The notes beneath the pieces were generated by a model. That model worked only from the letters and a program-made list of their open reading frames with translations. It did not search any database and was not told where the DNA came from. Both the position numbers and the translations under genes were made by a program. A stretch of 64,000 nt of DNA from assembly GCF_051903065.1 (NCBI RefSeq), contig NZ_CP178438.1; one strand, given 5' to 3'. This document shows, in pieces, positions 10,503 to 64,000 of the stretch. The stretch comes from Escherichia coli. Lineage in GTDB: Bacteria > Pseudomonadota > Gammaproteobacteria > Enterobacterales > Enterobacteriaceae. Position 1 is the first letter of the stretch. Every line of letters begins with the position of its first letter.

Positions 10503-11559
10503 GGCTTTGTTGAATAAATCGAACTTTTGCTGAGTTGAAGGATCAGATCACGTATCTTCCCGACAACGCAGACCGTTCCGTGGCAAAGCAAAAGTTCAAA
10601 ATCACCAACTGGCCCACCTACAATAAAGCCCTCATCAACCGTGGCTCCATAACTTTCTGGCTGGATGATGAAGCTATTCAGGCCTGGTATGAGTCAGCAA
10701 CACCTTCTTCACGAGGCAGACCTCAGCGCTATTCTGACCTTGCCATCACGACTGTGCTGGTCATTAAACGCGTATTCAGGCTGACCCTGCGCGCTGCGCA
10801 GGGCTTTATTGATTCCATTTTTTCTCTGATGAACGTTCCGCTACGCTGCCCGGATTACAGCTGTGTCAGCAGGCGGGCAAAGTCGGTTAATGTCAGTTTC
10901 AAAACGCCCACCCGGGGTGAAATCGCACACCTGGTAATTGATTCCACCGGGCTGAAGGTCTTCGGTGAAGGCGAGTGGAAAGTCAAAAAGCATGGCCAGG
11001 AACGCCGCCGTATCTGGCGTAAGCTGCATCTCGCCGTTGACAGTAAAACACATGAAATCATCTGCGCTGACCTGTCGCTGAACAACGTTACGGACTCAGA
11101 GGCCTTCCCCGGGTTAATCCGGCAAACCCACCGGAAAATCAGGTCAGCCGCCGCCGATGGCGCTTACGATACCCGGCTATGTCACGATGAACTGCGGCGT
11201 AAGAAAATCAGCGCGCTTATCCCTCCCCGAAAAGGTGCGGGTTACTGGCCCGGTGAATATGCAGACCGTAACCGTGCAGTGGCTAATCAGCGAATGACCG
11301 GGAGTAATGCGCGGTGGAAATGGACAACAGATTACAACCGTCGCTCGATAGCGGAAACGGCGATGTACCGGGTAAAACAGCTGTTCGGGGGTTCACTGAC
11401 ACTGCGTGACTACGATGGTCAGGTTGCAGAGGCTATGGCCCTGGTACGAGCGCTGAACAAAATGACGAAAGCAGGTATGCCTGAAAGCGTGCGTATTGCC
11501 TGAAAACACAACCCGCTACGGGGGAGACTTACCCGAAATCTGATTTATTCAACAAAGCC
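10503..11559 (+). mobile_element. IS903-type insertion sequence (IS5 family), about 1057 bp
   Basis: Terminal inverted repeats GGCTTTGTTGAATAAATC at 10503-10520 and its reverse complement at 11542-11559; internal transposase ORF; flanked by a 9-bp direct repeat. Confidence 0.9.
10535..11503 (+). CDS. IS903-group transposase
   Basis: 322-aa ORF (TTG start in the track; true start may be slightly internal); IS5/IS903-type transposase sequence. Confidence 0.85.
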   Translation: MKDQITYLPDNADRSVAKQKFKITNWPTYNKALINRGSITFWLDDEAIQAWYESATPSSRGRPQRYSDLAITTVLVIKRVFRLTLRAAQGFIDSIFSLMNVPLRCPDYSCVSRRAKSVNVSFKTPTRGEIAHLVIDSTGLKVFGEGEWKVKKHGQERRRIWRKLHLAVDSKTHEIICADLSLNNVTDSEAFPGLIRQTHRKIRSAAADGAYDTRLCHDELRRKKISALIPPRKGAGYWPGEYADRNRAVANQRMTGSNARWKWTTDYNRRSIAETAMYRVKQLFGGSLTLRDYDGQVAEAMALVRALNKMTKAGMPESVRIA

Positions 11560-12423: not shown

Positions 12424-14823
12424 ATGTCCTTAAAAGGTCTGCGCTTTACGCTGGAGATTGACGGCCAGGAGCCGGACACCTTTGCAGTGGTGAATTTCAG
12501 GTTAATCCAGAACCAGTCTTATCCGTTTGTGATGAGTGTGGATGTTGCCAGCGACTCTTTTATGCAGACGGCGGAGATGCTGCTGGAGAAGAAGGCGACG
12601 CTGGCCATCTGGCAGGGCGCGGTGGCGCAGCGTTATGTCACCGGCGTGGTGGCGGGTTTTGGTATGCAGGAGAACAATGGCTGGCAGATGCGTTATCACC
12701 TGCGTATTGAGCCGCCGTTATGGCGGTGCGGGCTGCGGCAGAACTTCCGTATCTTCCAGCAGCAGGATATCCGGACGATATCGGCCACGTTACTGAACGA
12801 GAACGGCGTCACGGAGTGGACGCCGCTGTTTTATGAGGACCATCCGGCGCGGGAGTTCTGTGTGCAGTACGGGGAGTCGGACCTGGCGTTTCTGGCGCGG
12901 CTGTGGGCGGAGGAGGGAATTTTCTTCTTTGAGCGGTTTGCGGCGGACAGTCCGGAGCAGAAGCTGACGCTGTGCGACGATGTGGCGGGGCTGTCACAGG
13001 CGGGAGAGCTTCCGTTTAACCCGGACACATCGGCAGGAGCGGAGACAGAGTGTGTCAGTATGTTCCGTTATGAGGCGTATGTCCGCCCGTCGTCGGTGCA
13101 GAGCCAGGATTACACGTTTAAGGTGCCGGACTGGCCGGGGATGTATGAGCAGCAGGGTGAGAACCTGAACGGACAGCTGGCGCAGTATGAGATATTTGAT
13201 TATCCGGGAAGGTTCAAGGATGAACAGCACGGTAAGGATTTCACGCTGTACCAGATGGAGAGCCTGCGCAGTGATGCGGAAAAGGCCACAGGGCAGAGTA
13301 ATTCACCGAAGCTGTGGCCGGGAACGCGGTTTACGCTGACGGGGCATCCGCAGAAGATGCTGAACCGTGAATGGCAGGTGGTACAGAGCATTCTGTCAGG
13401 GGACCAGCCGCAGGCGCTGCACGGCAGCCAGGGGAGAGGAACCACGCTGGGAAATCAGTTAGAGGTGATACCGGCGGACCGGACGTGGCGTCCACGGCTG
13501 CAAAGCAAACCGAAGGTGGACGGGCCGCAGAGTGCCATTGTGACCGGGCCGAAGGGTGAGGAGATATTCTGCGACGAACATGGCCGGGTACGGGTGAAGT
13601 TCCACTGGGACCGTTATCACGGGATGACGGAGGCGAGTTCATGCTGGGTGCGGGTATCACAGGCGTGGGCGGGGCCGGGGTTTGGTAACCTGGCGATACC
13701 GCGGGTGGGTCAGGAGGTGATTGTTGACTTCCTGAACGGAGACCCGGACCAGCCGCTGGTCATGGGCCGGACGTACCATGAGGACAACCGTTCGCCGGGG
13801 AGCCTGCCGGGGACGAAGACGCAGATGACGATACGGTCGAAGACCTATAAAGGAAGCGGATTTAACGAGTTGCGCTTTGAGGACGCCACCAGTAATGAGC
13901 AGGTGTATATCCATGCGCAGAAGAACATGGATACGGAGGTGCTCAACGACCGGACAACGGATGTGAAACATGACCATACGGAAACCATCGGTAACGACCA
14001 GAAGATAACGGTGGTGAAGGGTCAGACGGTTCAGGTCGGTACAAAAAAAGAGGGGGGCCACGACCAGAGTATCACGGTGGCGAATGACCGGTGCATCACG
14101 GTACGTAATGACCAGACGCTGCAGGTGACGAATGACCGGACGGTGAGCGTGAGTCACGATGACGGTCTGTACGTAAAAAATGACCGAAAGGTGACGGTGA
14201 AAGGGAAGCAGGAGCATAAGACGACGGGTAACCACATCAGCCTGGTGGAGGGGAAGCACAGCCTGGAGGTGAAGGGGGACCTGGCGGAGAAGGTGAGTGG
14301 CGCGCTGGGGATAAAAGTGGACGGGGATATCGTGCTGGAGAGCAGCAGCCGGATAAGCCTGAAGGTGGGTGGCTCGTTTATCGTCATTCAGCCGGGCGGA
14401 GTGGATATTGCCGGGCCGAAGATAAACCTGAACGGTGGGGGCAGTGCGGGGACACCGGTGGGGACGATGCAGCCGGCGGTGCTGGAGGCTCCGGAGGATG
14501 AGAGCAGTGATGATGGCAGTGATGACTCCGGAGAGGATAGTGGCAATCCCGCAGGGAGTGACGGAGGAGGTGATGGCGGTGACGATGAAGATGATCCTGA
14601 AAAATATACCCTCCAGTTCCATTTTACGGACGATGACGGGATACCGTATTCAGAGACGCAGTATATTGCCTTTTTTGAGGATGGCACACAGACGCGTGGT
14701 GAAACAGACAGAGAGGGATATACAGAAATATTTTATACAGATACAGCACAGGAAATTAAAGTCCAATTGTTATTTTCGGATGCTTTTTATATTGAGCCGG
14801 AGGGGCATTATGGCAGGGAATAA
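12424..14823 (+). CDS. vgrG: T6SS spike protein VgrG with acidic linker and C-terminal extension domain
   Basis: 799 aa; gp27/gp5-like body, repetitive beta-helix (VKNDRKVTV...), acidic Asp/Glu/Ser-rich linker, then a ~65-aa C-terminal domain. Confidence 0.9.
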   Translation: MSLKGLRFTLEIDGQEPDTFAVVNFRLIQNQSYPFVMSVDVASDSFMQTAEMLLEKKATLAIWQGAVAQRYVTGVVAGFGMQENNGWQMRYHLRIEPPLWRCGLRQNFRIFQQQDIRTISATLLNENGVTEWTPLFYEDHPAREFCVQYGESDLAFLARLWAEEGIFFFERFAADSPEQKLTLCDDVAGLSQAGELPFNPDTSAGAETECVSMFRYEAYVRPSSVQSQDYTFKVPDWPGMYEQQGENLNGQLAQYEIFDYPGRFKDEQHGKDFTLYQMESLRSDAEKATGQSNSPKLWPGTRFTLTGHPQKMLNREWQVVQSILSGDQPQALHGSQGRGTTLGNQLEVIPADRTWRPRLQSKPKVDGPQSAIVTGPKGEEIFCDEHGRVRVKFHWDRYHGMTEASSCWVRVSQAWAGPGFGNLAIPRVGQEVIVDFLNGDPDQPLVMGRTYHEDNRSPGSLPGTKTQMTIRSKTYKGSGFNELRFEDATSNEQVYIHAQKNMDTEVLNDRTTDVKHDHTETIGNDQKITVVKGQTVQVGTKKEGGHDQSITVANDRCITVRNDQTLQVTNDRTVSVSHDDGLYVKNDRKVTVKGKQEHKTTGNHISLVEGKHSLEVKGDLAEKVSGALGIKVDGDIVLESSSRISLKVGGSFIVIQPGGVDIAGPKINLNGGGSAGTPVGTMQPAVLEAPEDESSDDGSDDSGEDSGNPAGSDGGGDGGDDEDDPEKYTLQFHFTDDDGIPYSETQYIAFFEDGTQTRGETDREGYTEIFYTDTAQEIKVQLLFSDAFYIEPEGHYGRE

Positions 14824-44903: not shown

Positions 44904-44979
44904 GCCGATATAGCTCAGTTGGTAGAGCAGCGCATTCGTAATGCGAAGGTCGTAGGTTCGACTCCTATTATCGGCACCA
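44904..44979 (+). tRNA. thrW: tRNA-Thr (anticodon CGT)
   Basis: GCCGATATAGCTCAGTTGGTAGAGCAGCGCATTCGTAATGCGAAGGTCGTAGGTTCGACTCCTATTATCGGCACCA; cloverleaf with CGT anticodon. Confidence 0.95.
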
Positions 44980-44993
44980 TTTAAATCAATAAG

Positions 44994-46157
44994 TTACACA
45001 TCATTAGTACCTTCCTTATTTTTTGACTGGGACAAATTTGGGACCGATGGGTTCAGGATCGAGTCTATTTGCCGTGCGTGTTCGGTAAGGTGATTAGGTG
45101 CAAGGTGAGCATATCGACGAACCATTTCGATAGACTCCCAGCCTCCCATTTCCTGTAACACTGACAACGGGACTCCGGCTTGAACTAGCCAACTTGCCCA
45201 GGTGTGTCTCAAGTCGTGAAATCTGAAATCATCAATACCAGCCCGTCTCAGCGCCGCTTTCCAGGCTGTGTTTGCGTCATACCGCATCTTCCTTACTGTT
45301 GGCGCTTTCGTTCCGTCTGGTTTGGTACAGCTTTCCTTGTACACAAATACCCAACGGTGATGATTCCCGATTTGTTTTTTCAAAACGCGACATGCAGTAT
45401 CATTCAGCGCAACGCCAATTGCGCGGTTTGATTTACTCTCTTCCGGGTTTATCCATGCCACCCGGCGCTGCATGTCTATTTGTTGCCATTCAAGGTTGAT
45501 GATGTTCGAGCGTCTTAAGCCTGTTGCCAGTGCAAATTCAACAACAGACTTTAATGGCTCCGGACATTCATCAATCAGCCTTTGTGCTTCATGGGGCTCC
45601 AGCCAGCGGATCCGTTTATTCTTTGGTTGAGGCACTTTAATAATTGGTGCCTTATCCAGCATTTTCCATTCACGCTCTGCGGCTCTTAGTAGGGCCTTTA
45701 TAAATGAAAGATGCGTAGCCTTCGTTGCAACGGACGCTGGTTTTGGCGTGTATTCTGGAACAGGTTTCCCTTTTTTTCTGCATGCTTCTGCCCTGAGTCT
45801 CCAGTTTTCCTCATGACGCCGGTTCGTCATTTTCTGCATTGCTGAATAAATTTTTGATTCAGTAATGTCTCTTAGTTGCATTCCTGCGAAATGTTGAAGC
45901 CAGAATCCGATCCGGCTTTTGTCATCGTCCAGTGATTTTTTATGTGCTTTCTCTTCAAGCCACCTGACACACGCTTCCTCGAACGTTATATCAGGTATTT
46001 CACCAAGTTTGCTGACCCGCCATGCTTCAGCCTTTAGCTTGTCATGGAGTTCTGTCGCCTGCCTTTTGTCCTTTGTTCCAAGAGACTGTTTAAATCTTTT
46101 ACCGTTCGGCAATGTGAAACTGGCGTACCATATTTCACCTCTGCGGAAGAGTGACAT
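44994..46157 (-). CDS. int: Phage tyrosine integrase (P22-type, thrW-specific)
   Basis: 387 aa, [31 protein letters not shown]...; C-terminal catalytic domain ([10 protein letters not shown]...RYAH); directly adjacent to the tRNA 3' end. Confidence 0.93.
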
Positions 46158-48595: not shown

Positions 48596-48958
48596 TTAAC
48601 GACCTGCTGCGCGGAGTTTTCCGTCAGGTTCACCGGCAAGAGTCAGTAACTGTCCCTGGTCTTCCTGCAGAATAGTCAGGCGACCACCGCGATTGACATA
48701 CATCGGCGTTTCGGTGGTGTCTTCTTCGGAAATTTTCCCGCGGTTAGTCGGGCGAACATATGAGAGTTTGTGTTTGATTTTCACTCGGTTCTCATCAAAC
48801 GGTTCGATTTCCAGGTTGAGCGAGACCTTACCTTTGGTTTTCGTGTTCATCACACCGGAAGCGACTTCACTGAGAACTGCGCCGATTTTGGTTTCAAATA
48901 CGCCGCCGTCCAGCTCCCCGATAAATGCCTGCACATCAGTACTGCGTTCGCTAGCCAT
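48596..48958 (-). CDS. Phage protein, YfdP-like
   Basis: Start at ATG 48958 (MASERSTDVQ...) preceded by AGGAG; the track's longer ORF upstream is rejected. Confidence 0.55.
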   Translation of the reverse strand: MASERSTDVQAFIGELDGGVFETKIGAVLSEVASGVMNTKTKGKVSLNLEIEPFDENRVKIKHKLSYVRPTNRGKISEEDTTETPMYVNRGGRLTILQEDQGQLLTLAGEPDGKLRAAGR

Positions 48959-49426
48959 TTTGCTGCTCCTCATCATATCGACCCTGCAAGGTCGGTTAGT
49001 TTCTCCACAAAACAGAGAAGAACACCTGCGGTGACTGCCGCCCGGATGGATTGGGTTATGAGCCCGTCGTCCGGTGATGCTCTTCTCTGTTTTGTAAAAA
49101 GGACGGTACCAGCCGGAAGCAAGAGTACAAGCTGGTACCGCCAAGACTACACACAGCATAAAGTTGTGGTGCCGGGTGCCTCCCGGTGCCTGGCGAAGGT
49201 TGCACACCAGGCGGGTGGGTATCCACAGAAGGTCGACTGTCAGCCTCAACCTTAACCCGCGTGCGCTGAGCCGCATTCACCACAACGCTAAGGATTCTCT
49301 CTGGTTGAAAATACTTAGCTGTTATGTGCCTGCTTTTAGCCACATCAGGCGAGGTGGACCTAGTTATTCCCCAACAACAAGGATTCGGTTAATCTGGTTA
49401 TCCCCAACAACGCAAAAGGAAAAGAA

Positions 49427-56526: not shown

Positions 56527-57714
56527 TCAGCTAAATAAATATGTAATAGCATAAGGCGTAAGTAAAAAGTAGAACCTAAATGTAAGATATAAGCCACATA
56601 AAACTATAATTCCTAATGAGGCAAAAACAACTTTCTGAACAAGCAATCTTGTGGTTAAACTATCAAATGTATCCTTTATATCTTCGTAAATAGCCTTGAA
56701 GTTATATTCTGCTTGTTGTTTTTTATGATTTAACTCATCATTTATTGCTGTTAAAGTTTGCCATTGATTAAATAGAACAAATAGAATCATAATAGTGAAG
56801 AACAATGCACCCAACACTACAGCTGTATTTATTAATGCTTGACTATCCCAACCATTAGCCTGCTTCATTTGAGTCGCAACGATAATTGTTGCGACGGGGA
56901 TACCTAATATCTGATTTTGTATGTCACTGAATACTTTATGTATTTTTCCCATCTCTTCTATTTTGGCTACTCGTAACTGATCCAGTATTTTCTCGTAAGA
57001 AAAACCAGAAACGAATACTTTGTATCCTTTTTGATAACTTTCATAAAGTTGTCCTAAATCCCTTAACATGAAGGAAAAAGAGGTTTCTTTAGTTTTAGAT
57101 TCACATGATGATTTTATGCTACTTGCTAAAATAGTAAGTTTTTGATCTTTATGCGTATCTTCTGCAAAGTTTGCGATCAAATTATGAATCAGATCTCCAT
57201 TAACATTCATAAGATCATCGCTAGAATAATTTACTGGAATTTTTAGTACGTTGGATTCGACGAATACCAATTCAAAATTTGTTTCATCTAAATAAGCAGA
57301 ACAATCTTTGAATAAAGTAATTAAGCTCAAAACATCTCTGTACTTGGATATAATAGCAGGCGACTTTTTATCCCTGTTGTGATAATTAAGTTCGATTATA
57401 AAGAAGTTACTGGCTTCCTTTATCCTATTTTTAGGATTTTTTAAATACTCATTAAAAGAGAAATGTAGCTGCCCCAATCGTAATTTGGGGGGGGTTATAT
57501 GTAAGGTTATAGTTTGGCCTAACTCAATGTTGCCAGATTCAAGGGTGATGCCAAAATCATGGGGATTCTCTGTGATATCGTTGATGATGTCACAGAGCTC
57601 CTCGTTTGAAAGAATGAGTGATGCTTCAGATAGGGTACCTGCAAATGTAGCGGCCTTGTAAATAGTCACTAAGTCTTTGAAGGTTCTCTGATTGTTACTG
57701 CTCATCCTCTTCAC
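56527..57714 (-). CDS. Hypothetical protein with two C-terminal transmembrane helices (cassette gene 2)
   Basis: 395 aa; hydrophobic segments ALINTAVVLGALFFTIMILFVLF and VVFASLGIIVLCGLYLTFRFYFLL; 20-bp overlap with the upstream gene; AT-rich. Confidence 0.6.
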   Translation of the reverse strand: MKRMSSNNQRTFKDLVTIYKAATFAGTLSEASLILSNEELCDIINDITENPHDFGITLESGNIELGQTITLHITPPKLRLGQLHFSFNEYLKNPKNRIKEASNFFIIELNYHNRDKKSPAIISKYRDVLSLITLFKDCSAYLDETNFELVFVESNVLKIPVNYSSDDLMNVNGDLIHNLIANFAEDTHKDQKLTILASSIKSSCESKTKETSFSFMLRDLGQLYESYQKGYKVFVSGFSYEKILDQLRVAKIEEMGKIHKVFSDIQNQILGIPVATIIVATQMKQANGWDSQALINTAVVLGALFFTIMILFVLFNQWQTLTAINDELNHKKQQAEYNFKAIYEDIKDTFDSLTTRLLVQKVVFASLGIIVLCGLYLTFRFYFLLTPYAITYLFS

Positions 57715-58729
57715 CTAATTCTGATAAAATCTCTGATCTTAGCGTATCCGGAATCTCGGTAAGTATCAATTTATCGTTTTCTGAATCATAAAGAACGCTG
57801 CCATCATGCAAGGCCGCACGCTCGAATTTCAGAGACCAATGTTTGGACTTTCCTTTGAAACTAACAAGCCCACGTATAACGTTGCCATCAGGCACGAACC
57901 CATCAGAGAACTCCAGATCGTCATTGGTTAACTTTTCAACTAACAACTCAGGAGCAGTTGGCCATATCTCGTTTGCAAAAACTTGAGTGTCGAAAGCTTC
58001 ACCAGAACGATTTAAATTTTTTAATTTTTCATGAGCCTTATTTAGGAACTCTTCACGTGCCTCTGGTTCAAAACCTCTTTCAGTAGCAAATTCTAAAAGT
58101 GCATTCCGTAATTTTGTTGTTTCTTGTTTGGCAATTAGAATATCGTTACAACCTAAAAACTTTTTGAAATAACCTGCTACTGAATTTTGCCCCTTTAGAA
58201 AGCTAATATATCTCTCTTTGCCATTCTGGCGCCCAGTTAAGTCAATTCGTCCCGCTACTCGAAGTTTAGCAATGTCTAGATATTCACTTTCTTGAATTTC
58301 AAAATCGTGGACTGAAGAGCCAACTGCTGATGTTAGGATTGCAACCATCAAATAATGATTTCCATTTACCTCATTATGGGCAATTATTACATAACCACCA
58401 GTAGACATTGATTCATCATCGGCTCTGGCTTTTAAATGATTGATCATTCGGATACTAGTATCATAAAAACTATGTGTTTTATTTACGAAATAATCATCAA
58501 CGATATTACCCATAGGGTAACTATCGCGGTCATCTTCAAATTTACCATATCCTTTACCTGCTCTCCCAGAGTACCTTTCAGTAAGTGCGTTAGAGAGGTC
58601 TTTTGATGCTTGCTGAACAGGTTTTTCTGAAGGACAAGGAATAATGGTGGCTAACCCCTGTTGTTCCTTGTTCATAATGTGAACAATAAACTTATGAGTG
58701 ATATTAGTGGGGGTCGCTGATGCAGTCAT
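57695..58729 (-). CDS. NdpA/YejK-like nucleoid-associated protein homologue (cassette gene 1)
   Basis: 344 aa; blocks GGYVIIAH...YLMVAILTS, LDIAKLRVAGRIDLTGRQNGKERYISFLKGQN...FKKFLG and a C-terminal LILTEIPDTLRSEI mirror YejK (GGFVLFCH, LDLDKMQLASRIDLTAWQTNSDRYLSFLKGKNG...FLHFLG, LTIKGTPPNLRDQL). Confidence 0.7.
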   Translation of the reverse strand: MTASATPTNITHKFIVHIMNKEQQGLATIIPCPSEKPVQQASKDLSNALTERYSGRAGKGYGKFEDDRDSYPMGNIVDDYFVNKTHSFYDTSIRMINHLKARADDESMSTGGYVIIAHNEVNGNHYLMVAILTSAVGSSVHDFEIQESEYLDIAKLRVAGRIDLTGRQNGKERYISFLKGQNSVAGYFKKFLGCNDILIAKQETTKLRNALLEFATERGFEPEAREEFLNKAHEKLKNLNRSGEAFDTQVFANEIWPTAPELLVEKLTNDDLEFSDGFVPDGNVIRGLVSFKGKSKHWSLKFERAALHDGSVLYDSENDKLILTEIPDTLRSEILSELGEEDEQ

Positions 58730-59349: not shown

Positions 59350-59826
59350 ATGCAGGTACTAAATTCCCAGCGTAAAGCTTTCCTCGATATGGTGGCATGG
59401 TCAGAAGGAACGGATAACGGGCGACAACCGACACGTAACCACGGTTATGATATTATTGTTGGTGGTGAACTATTCACTGATTACTCCGATCACCCTCGCA
59501 AACTTGTCACGCTAAACCCCAAACTCAAATCAACAGCTGCAGGCCGTTATCAACTTCTTTCACGCTGGTGGGATGCTTACCGCAAGCAGCTTGGGCTGAA
59601 AGACTTCTCTCCAAAAAGCCAGGATGCTGTGGCATTGCAGCAGATTAAAGAGCGTGGCGCTTTACCGATGATTGATCGCGGCGATATTCGTCAGGCTATC
59701 GATCGTTGCAGCAATATCTGGGCTTCACTGCCGGGCGCTGGTTACGGTCAATATGAACATAAAATAGGTGACCTGATTGCCCGATTCAAAGAGGCTGGCG
59801 GGGTGGTAAATGAAGTTGAGCTATAA
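59350..59826 (+). CDS. Endolysin, lambda R-type lytic transglycosylase
   Basis: 158 aa; NQRKAFLDMVAWSEGTDNGRQ...DRCSNIWASLPGAGYGQ matches lambda R. Confidence 0.93.
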   Translation: MQVLNSQRKAFLDMVAWSEGTDNGRQPTRNHGYDIIVGGELFTDYSDHPRKLVTLNPKLKSTAAGRYQLLSRWWDAYRKQLGLKDFSPKSQDAVALQQIKERGALPMIDRGDIRQAIDRCSNIWASLPGAGYGQYEHKIGDLIARFKEAGGVVNEVEL

Positions 59827-60202
59827 GCTGGTTATCGCAGCATTCTTCTCTACTGTCATCGGTTCTTTCATCTGGTCTGCTAACCACTACTACAGCAAAT
59901 ATCAGCACGAAAAGAAACGTGCTGATGAGGCTGTACAAAATGCTGAATCCGCAACCGCTATTACCAATAATGTCCTGCAATCACTGCAAATCGTCAATAC
60001 AGTTCTGGAGGCTAACCAGCATGCAAAACAGCAGATCGCACTGGAGTCACAGAGAACCCAGGAAGATATCAAAGTGGCTGTTGAGAATGATGATTGCGCT
60101 TCCCGTCTTGTTCCTGCTCGTGCAACTGAGCGGCTGCGCCGGTACGCGGACAATTTACGTACCAGTTCCGGCGGTACCACTACCGGCGAACCTGACCGCT
60201 GA
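59810..60202 (+). CDS. Spanin inner-membrane subunit (Rz-like)
   Basis: 130 aa, N-terminal TM helix then coiled-coil; overlaps the R 3' end. Confidence 0.75.
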   Translation: MKLSYKLVIAAFFSTVIGSFIWSANHYYSKYQHEKKRADEAVQNAESATAITNNVLQSLQIVNTVLEANQHAKQQIALESQRTQEDIKVAVENDDCASRLVPARATERLRRYADNLRTSSGGTTTGEPDR

Positions 60203-60344
60203 AACCCCACAGCCAGCTATTCCTGATCCGCTGACTTACAGAGATAGTCTGGATTTAAACGTGAGCCTGCTGTCAGTGCTGGCTGCCTGTAATAGGGATA
60301 AGGCTGATATTCGTAAAATTGAAGCAGAGAAGAGTGAGCCATGA
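60087..60344 (+). CDS. Spanin outer-membrane lipoprotein (Rz1-like), overlapping Rz in another frame
   Basis: Internal start MMIALPVLFLLVQLSGC (lipobox), Pro-rich mature part; extends past the Rz stop. Confidence 0.65.
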   Translation: MMIALPVLFLLVQLSGCAGTRTIYVPVPAVPLPANLTAETPQPAIPDPLTYRDSLDLNVSLLSVLAACNRDKADIRKIEAEKSEP

Positions 60345-60538: not shown

Positions 60539-61132
60539 ATGACGGACTATACTTTTTTTTACTGGATAGAGATGCTTCTTAAAGAAGGCAATGTTTTATT
60601 TATTGTTCTTGCTTGTTTGATTGTCTTTTTTACTTTAAAAAAAGAAATAATAATGGTTTTAGGTCGTCTTAATACAGTTAAGCTAGGTGACTATGAGATT
60701 AAATTTAAAAAAGAAATGTTTGAAATAGAATCTAAAAGTATAGAGGTTATTAAAAATTTACCTGGAACAAATCCTGTCCTGCCGACACAACTCATTGAGA
60801 ATTTCAATATTTTTGAGAGTCTTGCTAGTACTCAGCCTAATGTTGCTGTACTTTCAGCTTGGCGCGAATTGGAGTTAACCGCTATAACGCTTGCATCTAA
60901 AAAGGGGGTTGAGATCAACGGGACATCTTTAGGGCGGGCTTCAGGTATCGCTGCCTTGAAAAATGTCCAATCTGCAAACAAAATTTCTAGTGACATTGTT
61001 AAGCTTTATGAAAAAACAGGAGAGTCTATTAAGCCTATATCCCAAGGAAAGCTCTTATGTACTCAGGAAGATGCTTTGGCATTCTGTAAGAATGCAAAAA
61101 GACTTAGCAATTATTTAACATCCATATTTTAG
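60539..61132 (+). CDS. Hypothetical protein with N-terminal TM helix (AT-rich moron after the lysis cassette)
   Basis: 197-aa ORF, about 30% GC against a ~50% GC phage background. Confidence 0.5.
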   Translation: MTDYTFFYWIEMLLKEGNVLFIVLACLIVFFTLKKEIIMVLGRLNTVKLGDYEIKFKKEMFEIESKSIEVIKNLPGTNPVLPTQLIENFNIFESLASTQPNVAVLSAWRELELTAITLASKKGVEINGTSLGRASGIAALKNVQSANKISSDIVKLYEKTGESIKPISQGKLLCTQEDALAFCKNAKRLSNYLTSIF

Positions 61133-61550: not shown

Positions 61551-61901
61551 ATGCCACCACGAACACCAAAAGCCTGCCGTGTTCGCGGCTGCCGCTCTAC
61601 AACCACAGACCCTTCAGGCTACTGCGAAAGCCACAAAAGCGAAGGCTGGAAGCAATACAAAACTGGACAATCCCGTCATCAGCGCGGCTACGGTTCGAAG
61701 TGGGACAGTATCCGCGCGCGTGTCCTGAAGCGTGACAAAGGCCTGTGTCAGTTATGTCTGCGTGCTGGTGTGGTGCGTGAGGCGAAGACCGTTGACCACA
61801 TCATCCCTAAATCGCATGGCGGCACTGATGTCGACAGTAATCTGCAGAGTTTGTGCTGGCCGTGTCATAAGGCGAAGACGGCCCGTGAACGGCTGAAGTA
61901 A
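61551..61901 (+). CDS. Phage HNH endonuclease (terminase-associated)
   Basis: 116 aa; Cys-rich HNH motif (CQLC...VDHIIPKSHGGTDVDSNLQSLCWPCH). Confidence 0.85.
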   Translation: MPPRTPKACRVRGCRSTTTDPSGYCESHKSEGWKQYKTGQSRHQRGYGSKWDSIRARVLKRDKGLCQLCLRAGVVREAKTVDHIIPKSHGGTDVDSNLQSLCWPCHKAKTARERLK

Positions 61902-62017: not shown

Positions 62018-62521
62018 GTGCCGCATATGGCTGGAACGGCGGGGCGTTCCGGGCGTCGCCCCAAGCCAACGGCGCGCAAGGCGCTGGCCGGAAACCCCGG
62101 CAAGCGAGCCCTGAACAAAGATGAACCTGTTTTTACGCCCATCAAAGGTGTTGAGCCACCGGAGTGGTTCGCTGAAGAGGATCTCCCTCTCGCCACGATC
62201 ATGTGGCAACTGACAACCAAAGAACTCTGCGGTCAGGGCCTGCTGTGCGTGACTGACCTAGCGGTACTTGAGCGGTGGTGCGTGGCCTATGAGTTCTGGC
62301 GACGTGCCGTGAAAAATATTGCCAAACAGGGCAACACCATCACCGGTGCAATGGGCGGTATGGTCAAAAATCCGGAGCTGACCGCCAAAAAAGAACAGGA
62401 GTCCGAGATGAGCAGTACGGGGGCAATGCTCGGACTCGACCCCAGCAGCCGCCAGCGTCTGATTGGCCTGGCGGGGAAGAAGAAAGCCACTAACCCGTTT
62501 CTGAAAATCATCGAATCATGA
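62018..62521 (+). CDS. Terminase small subunit (P27-family-like)
   Basis: 167-aa ORF directly upstream of the large subunit. Confidence 0.75.
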
Positions 62522-64000
62522 GCCGGAAATCTTACCCCAACGTAAATGCTGCCAATCAGTATGCCCGGGATGTCGTGCGCGGAAAGATTGTGGCCTGCCA
62601 GTTTGTGATTCAGGCCTGCCAGCGCCATCTTGATGACCTGATGGCGGAAAAAAGTAAGTCGTTTCGTTACCGCTTCGACAAGGACCTGGCTGAACGGGCC
62701 GCCAAATTTATTCAGCTGTTGCCGCACACCAAGGGTGAGTGGGCATTCAAGAGGATGCCCATCACGCTGGAGCCGTGGCAGCTCTTTGTGATCTGCTGCG
62801 CGTTTGGCTGGGTCAATAAAGGCTCCCGGCTGCGCCGCTTCCGTGAGGTGTATACCGAAATCCCCCGTAAGAACGGCAAATCGGCAATCTCTGCCGGTGT
62901 CGCCCTGTATTGTTTTGCCTGTGATAACGAGTTTGGCGCGGAAGTGTATTCCGGTGCCACGACAGAGAAACAGGCGTGGGAAGTCTTTCGCCCGGCGCGA
63001 CTGATGTGTAAACGCACACCCATGCTGACGGAAGCGTTCGGGATTGAGGTTAACGCCTCAAACATGAACCGTCCGGAGGATGGCGCGCGGTTTGAACCGC
63101 TGATCGGTAACCCCGGTGATGGATCATCACCCCACTGTGCGGTGGTGGATGAATATCACGAGCACGCCACCGATGCGCTTTACACCACGATGCTTACCGG
63201 GATGGGGCGCGACGTCAGCCACTGATGTGGGCCATTACTACTGCCGGGTACAACATTGAGGGGCCGTGCTACGACAAGCGGCGGGAAGTCATCGAGATGC
63301 TCAACGGCTCGGTGCCCAACGATGAACTGTTCGGGATCATCTATACCGTTGATGAAGGTGACGACTGGACCGACCCGCAGGTGCTGGAAAAAGCCAATCC
63401 AAATATTGGCGTGTCGGTTTATCGCGAATTTTTGTTAAGTCAGCAGCAGCGTGCGAAAAATAACGCCCGTCTGGCAAACGTCTTTAAAACAAAACACCTC
63501 AATATCTGGGTGTCGGCGCGTTCGGCGTATTTCAACCTGGTGAGCTGGCAGAGCTGCGAGGATAAATCACTGACCCTTGAGCAGTTCGAGGGGCAGCCGT
63601 GCATTCTGGCCTTTGACCTGGCGCGTAAGCTGGATATGAACAGCATGGCGCGACTTTATACCCGCGAGATTGACGGTAAAACGCATTACTACAGTGTGGC
63701 CCCGCGTTTCTGGGTACCGTATGACACGGTGTACAGCGTCGAGAAAAATGAAGATCGACGGACAGCCGAACGCTTTCAGAAATGGGTGGAAATGGGCGTT
63801 CTGACCGTTACCGATGGTGCAGAGGTGGATTATCGCTACATCCTCGAAGAGGCCAAAGCGGCGAACAAAATCAGCCCGGTCAGTGAGTCACCCATCGACC
63901 CTTTCGGAGCGACCGGGCTCTCACATGACCTTGCTGATGAAGACCTGAACCCCATCACTATCATTCAGAACTACACCAACATGTCCGACCCGATGAAAGA
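62518..64000 (+). CDS. Terminase large subunit, disrupted by a 1-nt frameshift near 63204-63207, 3'-partial at window end
   Basis: Frame 1 carries Walker A (IPRKNGKS) and Walker B (AVVDEYHEH) and stops at 63225; frame 0 from 63153 continues terminase-like to the window end. Confidence 0.8.

Follow-up and report, generated by a model that had tools for sequence, protein, structure and literature searches.

The DNA analysed here (the window) is a stretch of 64,000 nucleotides from Escherichia coli, whose last part belongs to the late operon of an SfV-like prophage with HK97-type head and packaging genes, integrated at the tRNA-Thr gene by proA. This tRNA-Thr (CGT) gene (44904..44979, plus strand; ARAGORN) adjoins proA and forms the left boundary of the prophage as well as its attachment site. 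The tRNA-Thr beside proA is the integration site used by SfV-type phages. Next to it lies the integrase gene on the minus strand (44994-46157; PHROG integrase E = 3.5e-120 and annotation of 23CRST027). Near the end of the window, an intact HNH endonuclease gene (61551..61901, plus strand; Pfam HNH E = 7e-17 and annotation) is located upstream of an intact terS gene (62027..62521, plus strand), encoding a small terminase subunit of the P27 family (Terminase_4, PF05119 E = 1.4e-21; annotation of the identical 23CRST027 sequence) and overlapping the start of the large subunit gene terL by 4 nt. The downstream structural genes are situated outside the window, and their order was read from genomes that differ from the window by 0-1 substitution where the sequences are shared. 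In these genomes with the same prophage, the operon continues beyond terL with a portal, an HK97-type protease, a capsid and a contractile-tail module. The gene thus sits in the context of a TerL gene, with terS directly upstream and, in those relatives, portal, protease and capsid genes downstream.

Some accessory genes were observed in the same prophage. The interval between the Q antiterminator and the holin contains a divergently oriented gene pair (56527-58729, minus strand) at the usual accessory position of the late operon, encoding a 392-aa hypothetical protein and a 344-aa protein of the nucleoid-associated type (PF04245). In related prophages the same spot is occupied by a KAP NTPase (L010) or by a pair of 404 and 391 aa (L005). 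Between the lysis genes and the HNH gene, a 197-aa hypothetical protein is encoded (60539-61132), which has no Pfam family on record and is present in some related prophages only. A PADLOC scan of these three genes gave no match. A candidate frameshift in the Rz/Rz1 region (59810-60344) was rejected, this being the normal embedded arrangement.

The terL gene itself is written as two open reading frames. The first starts with ATG (62518..63225, plus strand; ORF list and translation), encodes 235 aa and is closed by a TGA at 63223-63225. It comprises TerL residues 1-230 followed by the out-of-frame tail RDVSH, and has the Walker A (G-K-S/T) and Walker B (hhhhDE) motifs of an N-terminal ASCE ATPase, i.e. 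PRKNGKS at aa 116-122 (nt 62863-62883) and AVVDE at aa 208-212 (nt 63139-63153). The remainder of the terminase is found by translation in the -1 frame, which stays open from 63153 to the end of the window. Its ORF (63225..64000, plus strand, truncated by the window end) covers residues 237 onward, with the last ATPase strand containing ITTAG, the linker and the nuclease domain. Its first in-frame ATG (Met237) shares one base with the stop codon of the first ORF in a TGATG overlap (63223..63227). The two frames part at a GGGG run (63204..63207, plus strand; terL nt 687-691, codons 230/231), in which 63205-07 is the codon for Gly230; the site was located by alignment, by genome comparison and by a 60-nt query. 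Adding one G to this run gives 494 aa that agree at every position (0 mismatches) with residues 1-494 of WP_000088150.1, an annotated 577-aa 'terminase large subunit', and in a three-way DNA alignment of the window with two E. coli genomes the sole gap falls exactly within the run. The preliminary description had proposed a terminase large subunit interrupted by the loss of one base in a G-run, with an ATPase part carrying both Walker motifs and ending at 63225, the rest following in the next frame from 63153 and one extra G at 63204-63207 restoring the protein; all of this is borne out.

Pfam analysis assigned TerL_ATPase to the first ORF (E = 2e-18; residues 86-230) and TerL_nuclease (PF20441) to the second with E = 1.3e-34, a value obtained with the full 341-aa fragment of relatives, the window holding residues 237-494 only. 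With both halves matching a terminase domain, the resemblance is not due to chance. In the repaired TerL, the ATPase domain (PF03354; E = 3.4e-26) extends over residues 86-256 and the nuclease domain over residues 268-558, the latter being the C-terminal RNase H-like nuclease of HK97/SfV-type TerL proteins. The first ORF covers the ATPase profile from position 1 to 148 of 178 only. The cut lies between the helix following Walker B and the next core strand, LMWAITTAG, which aligns with LLIVISTQAAN of HK97 TerL (6Z6D), and residues 231-236 (ARRQPL) are missing from both ORFs. There is no single uninterrupted polypeptide with both TerL domains, as a stop follows residue 230 and five out-of-frame residues. 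The window terL is a frameshifted copy of a member of the HK97/SfV-type TerL family (PF03354 and PF20441) and, as written, not a functional member. Since the break lies within the ATPase domain, a protein split inside this fold is unlikely to be active, and neither ORF is expected to work in the form written.

The other visible parts of the prophage, i.e. the integrase, regulators, lysis genes, HNH and TerS, are intact. 'Packaging-defective' is therefore a fairer label than 'cryptic', the term first used for this prophage, and it is plausible from the sequence that it cannot package DNA. The TGATG overlap might allow the C-terminal TerL piece to be made by reinitiation. Besides, the terL query matches two places in the near-clonal genome 23CRST027 (NZ_AP045789.1), and a second related terminase gene is probably present in the strain, which could complement the defective one.

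When compared with known phages, the region from HNH through terS to terL, or terS-terL, shows 95.8-97.9% nucleotide identity to SfV, SfII, SfIV, SfI, Salmonella phage 118970_sal3 and Escherichia phage SKA5. The SfV-type phages and the window prophage both have a P27-type terS followed by terL and are alike in the tRNA-Thr/proA site, and the portal, HK97-type protease, capsid and contractile-tail genes of the near-clonal relatives come in the order found in these phages. However, the terL of the phages is uninterrupted, whereas the window terL is spread over two ORFs and has four G. The matches in SfII, SfV, SfIV and SfI (97.5-97.9% nucleotide identity) are one base longer than the query, indicating the presence of the extra base in viable phages. 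Among solved structures, the large terminase gp2 of HK97 (PDB 6Z6D) is nearest, with homology over residues 112-556 (E = 4.7e-25). It shares with the repaired TerL both Pfam domains (PF03354, PF20441), Walker A, Walker B and the strand with the S/T-T motif. However, it is only distantly related, and the window polypeptide is broken between Walker B and the core strand that follows. A literature search for terminase homopolymer frameshifts in prophages returned only unrelated matches, as judged by title, and a search for the strain names returned none.

Next, the length of the run was compared across E. coli genomes. A 1,483-nt terL query was covered for at least 80% by 1,101 E. coli records, and among the terL matches listed, 40 out of 40 E. 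coli sequences span 1,484 nt against the 1,483 nt of the query. With a 60-nt query centred on the run, the four-G form was found in 0 of the 1,378 complete E. coli genomes matched; since no complete genome matches this query at ≥99% identity, none has four G. Every homolog examined outside the four-G loci described below has GGGGG at this position.

Six near-clonal genomes (23CRST027, 23CRST031, GCA_037286885.1, GCA_025874605.1, the Logan assembly ERR10321876 and GCA_002941455.1), with 0-1 substitution relative to the window, all have five G at the run (6/6). Over about 64 kb, 23CRST027 differs from the window by 0 substitutions, four 1-nt differences and two extra IS1 copies; over about 48 kb, 23CRST031 differs by 0 substitutions and five 1-nt differences. 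All of these 1-nt differences sit in homopolymers and, together with the IS1 copies, they are the only differences in 64 kb. For GCA_037286885.1, GCA_025874605.1 and ERR10321876, 8-13 kb could be compared, with 0-1 substitution and otherwise only the five G as a difference. Among these seven near-identical genomes, the four-G state is private to the window genome, and it is therefore either an error or a very recent event. The IS1 copies present in 23CRST027/031 and absent from the window are located at ~23055 and ~31590 (window coordinates), and an IS903B between tssB and hcp (10535-11503) is common to the window and both genomes. The end of contig PTNB01000052.1, 9 nt past the G-run, was considered as a sign of heterogeneity and discarded: it is a scaffold with an N gap, carries five G and is uninformative.

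Besides a T-run at 49092-96 and the terL G-run, the differences of 23CRST027 and 23CRST031 are private 1-nt deletions in runs of four in those genomes (G4 to G3, A4 to A3 and T4 to T3). They break vgrG at two sites (12871 and 13399 in window coordinates; vgrG/tssI, ORF 12424-14823), a LexA-like gene, rusA and terS, the other sites being 53882, 53951 and 62473. PGAP flags these genes as 'frameshifted', whereas the window is intact at each site. Because there are zero substitutions between the genomes, these deletions look like assembly errors in the two RefSeq complete genomes.

The preliminary description had also linked the terL deletion to a T-run frameshift as a possible pattern of homopolymer sequencing errors in the window. 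This T-run was taken to be 49092-49096, the only A/T run differing from the near-clones, within a ymfH-like gene on the minus strand (about 48973-49283). The window has T5 here, as do the unrelated strain 504239 and most full-length matches in a spread sample, while 23CRST027 and 23CRST031 have T4 and strain JNE131328 has T6. In all three length variants examined, PGAP marks the ymfH-like gene as 'frameshifted'. This gene is, judging from these variants, an inherited polymorphic pseudogene and not a window-specific error, and the T-run was rejected as such. In the window, the frame upstream of the T-run continues into yfdP as a 226-aa ORF (48596-49276). The error pattern was assessed from whole-window differences against the two near-clonal complete genomes and from prophage-region differences against the four drafts of the same clone. 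With T5 inherited and the other changes located in 23CRST027/031, such a pattern is not supported: within 64 kb, no homopolymer other than the terL G-run has a private change. The change from G5 to G4 does affect a homopolymer, and near-identical genomes lack it, but it is the single ORF-breaking change of this kind in the 64-kb window.

The same deletion was found in other assemblies. The exact 235-aa fragment is present in 22 contigs and the 341-aa second ORF in 46 blocks of a large assembly collection, compared to at least 1,000 contigs with the intact TerL. In 16 out of 16 fetched loci with both ORFs, the same single gap is located in the G-run and terL has no other indel. Gene callers started the 341-aa ORF at the ATG of the TGATG in these other four-G loci. 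The change from G5 to G4 occurs on eight other terL haplotypes (nine including the window), which are 16-50 SNPs apart, mostly at third codon positions, and have different flanking modules, including a siphovirus-type tail in L019. All three haplotypes tested (L005, L019 and L015) are matched in complete genomes by a five-G twin that differs in nothing else (99.9%), indicating that the deletion arose independently and recently each time. Moreover, for two four-G haplotypes, separate assemblies or read sets gave 100% identical sequences, in one case GCA_964041655.1 and Logan ERR4035105 and in the other several ENA and Logan metagenome assemblies. The G5 to G4 mutation therefore does exist in real DNA.

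As a hotspot control, the predicted products of 1-nt changes in other terL runs were looked up by exact sequence. For the window site, G5(-1), 11-22 contigs were retrieved by these look-ups. The C5(-1) product was found in 5 contigs of the same haplotype and on at least five further haplotypes, one of them with 17 contigs, A6(+1) in 7 contigs, and C5(+1) and C4@613(-1) in 1 contig each. The predicted products of G5(+1), A6(-1) and C4@594(-1) were absent from the exact-sequence look-up. Public assemblies thus contain C5(-1), C5(+1), A6(+1) and C4(-1) products of terL in the same way as G5(-1). Since the C5 and A6 runs frameshift equally recurrently, G5 is not a special hotspot, and it was rejected as a site-specific hotspot or contingency locus. 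On the sequences available, it is one of several terL runs that frameshift at low frequency.

Two explanations come into consideration first. The preferred one, judged to have an even chance of being right, is that the four G represent a genuine recent mutation that splits a wild-type terL in an SfV-like prophage. Replication slippage in the short homopolymer would be the likely cause, with one G lost from G5 at codons 230/231. The loss would divide TerL within its ATPase domain into a 235-aa ORF, with Walker A and B and lacking the ITTAG strand, and a 341-aa ORF. As written, the prophage would be left with no functional large terminase and would neither cut nor package DNA, its other visible functions being intact. 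As the change is private to the window genome, it would have to be very recent: a tip mutation of a kind that recurs in terL at low frequency without persisting. The occurrence of the identical mutation in real DNA of other lineages counts for this explanation. So does the number of private homopolymer changes, as three to four of them per 50-64 kb are seen in error-prone assemblies of this clone, where the window has one, and an error-prone assembly would be expected to have several. Against it, a real indel is a priori improbable at a divergence of 0-1 substitution, and a repaired protein that is 100% wild type gives no sign of later decay.

An assembly or consensus error is a serious contender, with a probability a little short of even. 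According to this explanation, terL is in truth intact in the strain, with GGGGG at the run, and a long-read assembly dropped one G at the base-calling or polishing stage. Such assemblies classically retain errors in the form of 1-nt deletions in G/C runs, and a window that crosses IS903B in 64 kb of unbroken sequence is compatible with long-read assembly. The 1-nt homopolymer changes that, along with IS1, make up all differences from 23CRST027/031 in ~64 kb, with 0 substitutions, indicate that assemblies of this clone do carry homopolymer errors. The five G of all six near-clonal genomes, the identity of the repaired product to WP_000088150.1 and the lack of the four-G form in all 1,378 complete genomes point in the same direction. 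However, the errors demonstrated are in the other genomes and not in the window, which is wild type at all seven other variable homopolymer sites and has no other newly broken gene in 64 kb. Moreover, other lineages reproducibly show the identical deletion in assemblies made independently, and an artefact is thus not the only way for it to appear. Homopolymer frameshift pseudogenes in prophages and long-read length errors both show this same 1-nt change in a short run of an otherwise perfect ORF with intact close relatives. The window terL cannot be told apart from this class, in which real and artefactual cases look alike.

It is very improbable that the four-G allele is real and still functional or selected, by -1 slippage, by reinitiation at the TGATG with fragments that assemble, or as an on/off switch for particle production. 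The sequence does offer some features for this: a P-site tRNA-Gly shifting from GGG at 63205-07 to GGG at 63204-06 would re-pair perfectly and go on with GCG CGA CGU, which encodes ARR as in the wild type and would recreate the exact wild-type protein; the stop codon overlaps the in-frame ATG that follows; and the deletion recurs on nine haplotypes. However, no homolog keeps the two-frame architecture, and each four-G haplotype tested has a five-G twin identical elsewhere, so four-G lineages do not persist. The allele is also very rare, being present in 0 of 1,378 complete genomes and in 22-46 contigs, where the intact protein has at least 1,000, and other terL runs are equally recurrent, with C5(-1) on at least six haplotypes and A6(+1) in seven contigs. 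The site reads G AUG GGG C, which is no canonical X_XXY_YYZ heptamer, and the 83 nt downstream fold at -21.2 kcal/mol, weaker than shuffles (z = +1.34). Furthermore, the split is inside the ATPase fold and not at a domain linker, no Shine-Dalgarno sequence is present within 15 nt of the restart ATG at 63225, and a G5 run is too short for useful phase variation. Programmed -1 frameshifts, such as that of the tail assembly chaperone G/GT, resemble terL in having two overlapping frames and a run for tRNA re-pairing after a -1 shift. However, programmed sites are conserved across homologs and have a slippery heptamer, while the terL homologs are single-frame (0/1,378 genomes with four G, phages one base longer, three five-G twins) and their splitting into two frames is private and recently derived. 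With neither a conserved two-frame state nor a heptamer and a downstream stimulatory RNA structure, a programmed frameshift was rejected. It is hardly credible that the G5 of SfV-type terL serves for recurrent and possibly selected inactivation, yielding a split terminase that is partly active or can be complemented in trans, or as a switch for particle production.

Whether genuine or erroneous, the window terL represents a familiar gene, in a familiar type of prophage, that carries a frameshift. Changes of this class are ordinary, and this one has little import beyond annotation. If the mutation is genuine, the thrW prophage of the strain would be packaging-defective, providing one more first step of prophage decay and an example of tip mutations that recur without persisting. 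If it is an error, the correct annotation is an intact terL. Where a single homopolymer frameshift is the only defect of a gene that is wild type elsewhere, it is not interpretable without reads, and near-clonal 'complete' genomes such as 23CRST027/031 can themselves hold several homopolymer errors. As for annotation, the TGATG overlap born from the frameshift leads gene callers to report two tidy genes of 235 and 341 aa. Separate families of TerL fragments exist in PHROGs (phrog_2699, phrog_4914 and phrog_7331), which suggests that phage records often have TerL annotated in pieces.
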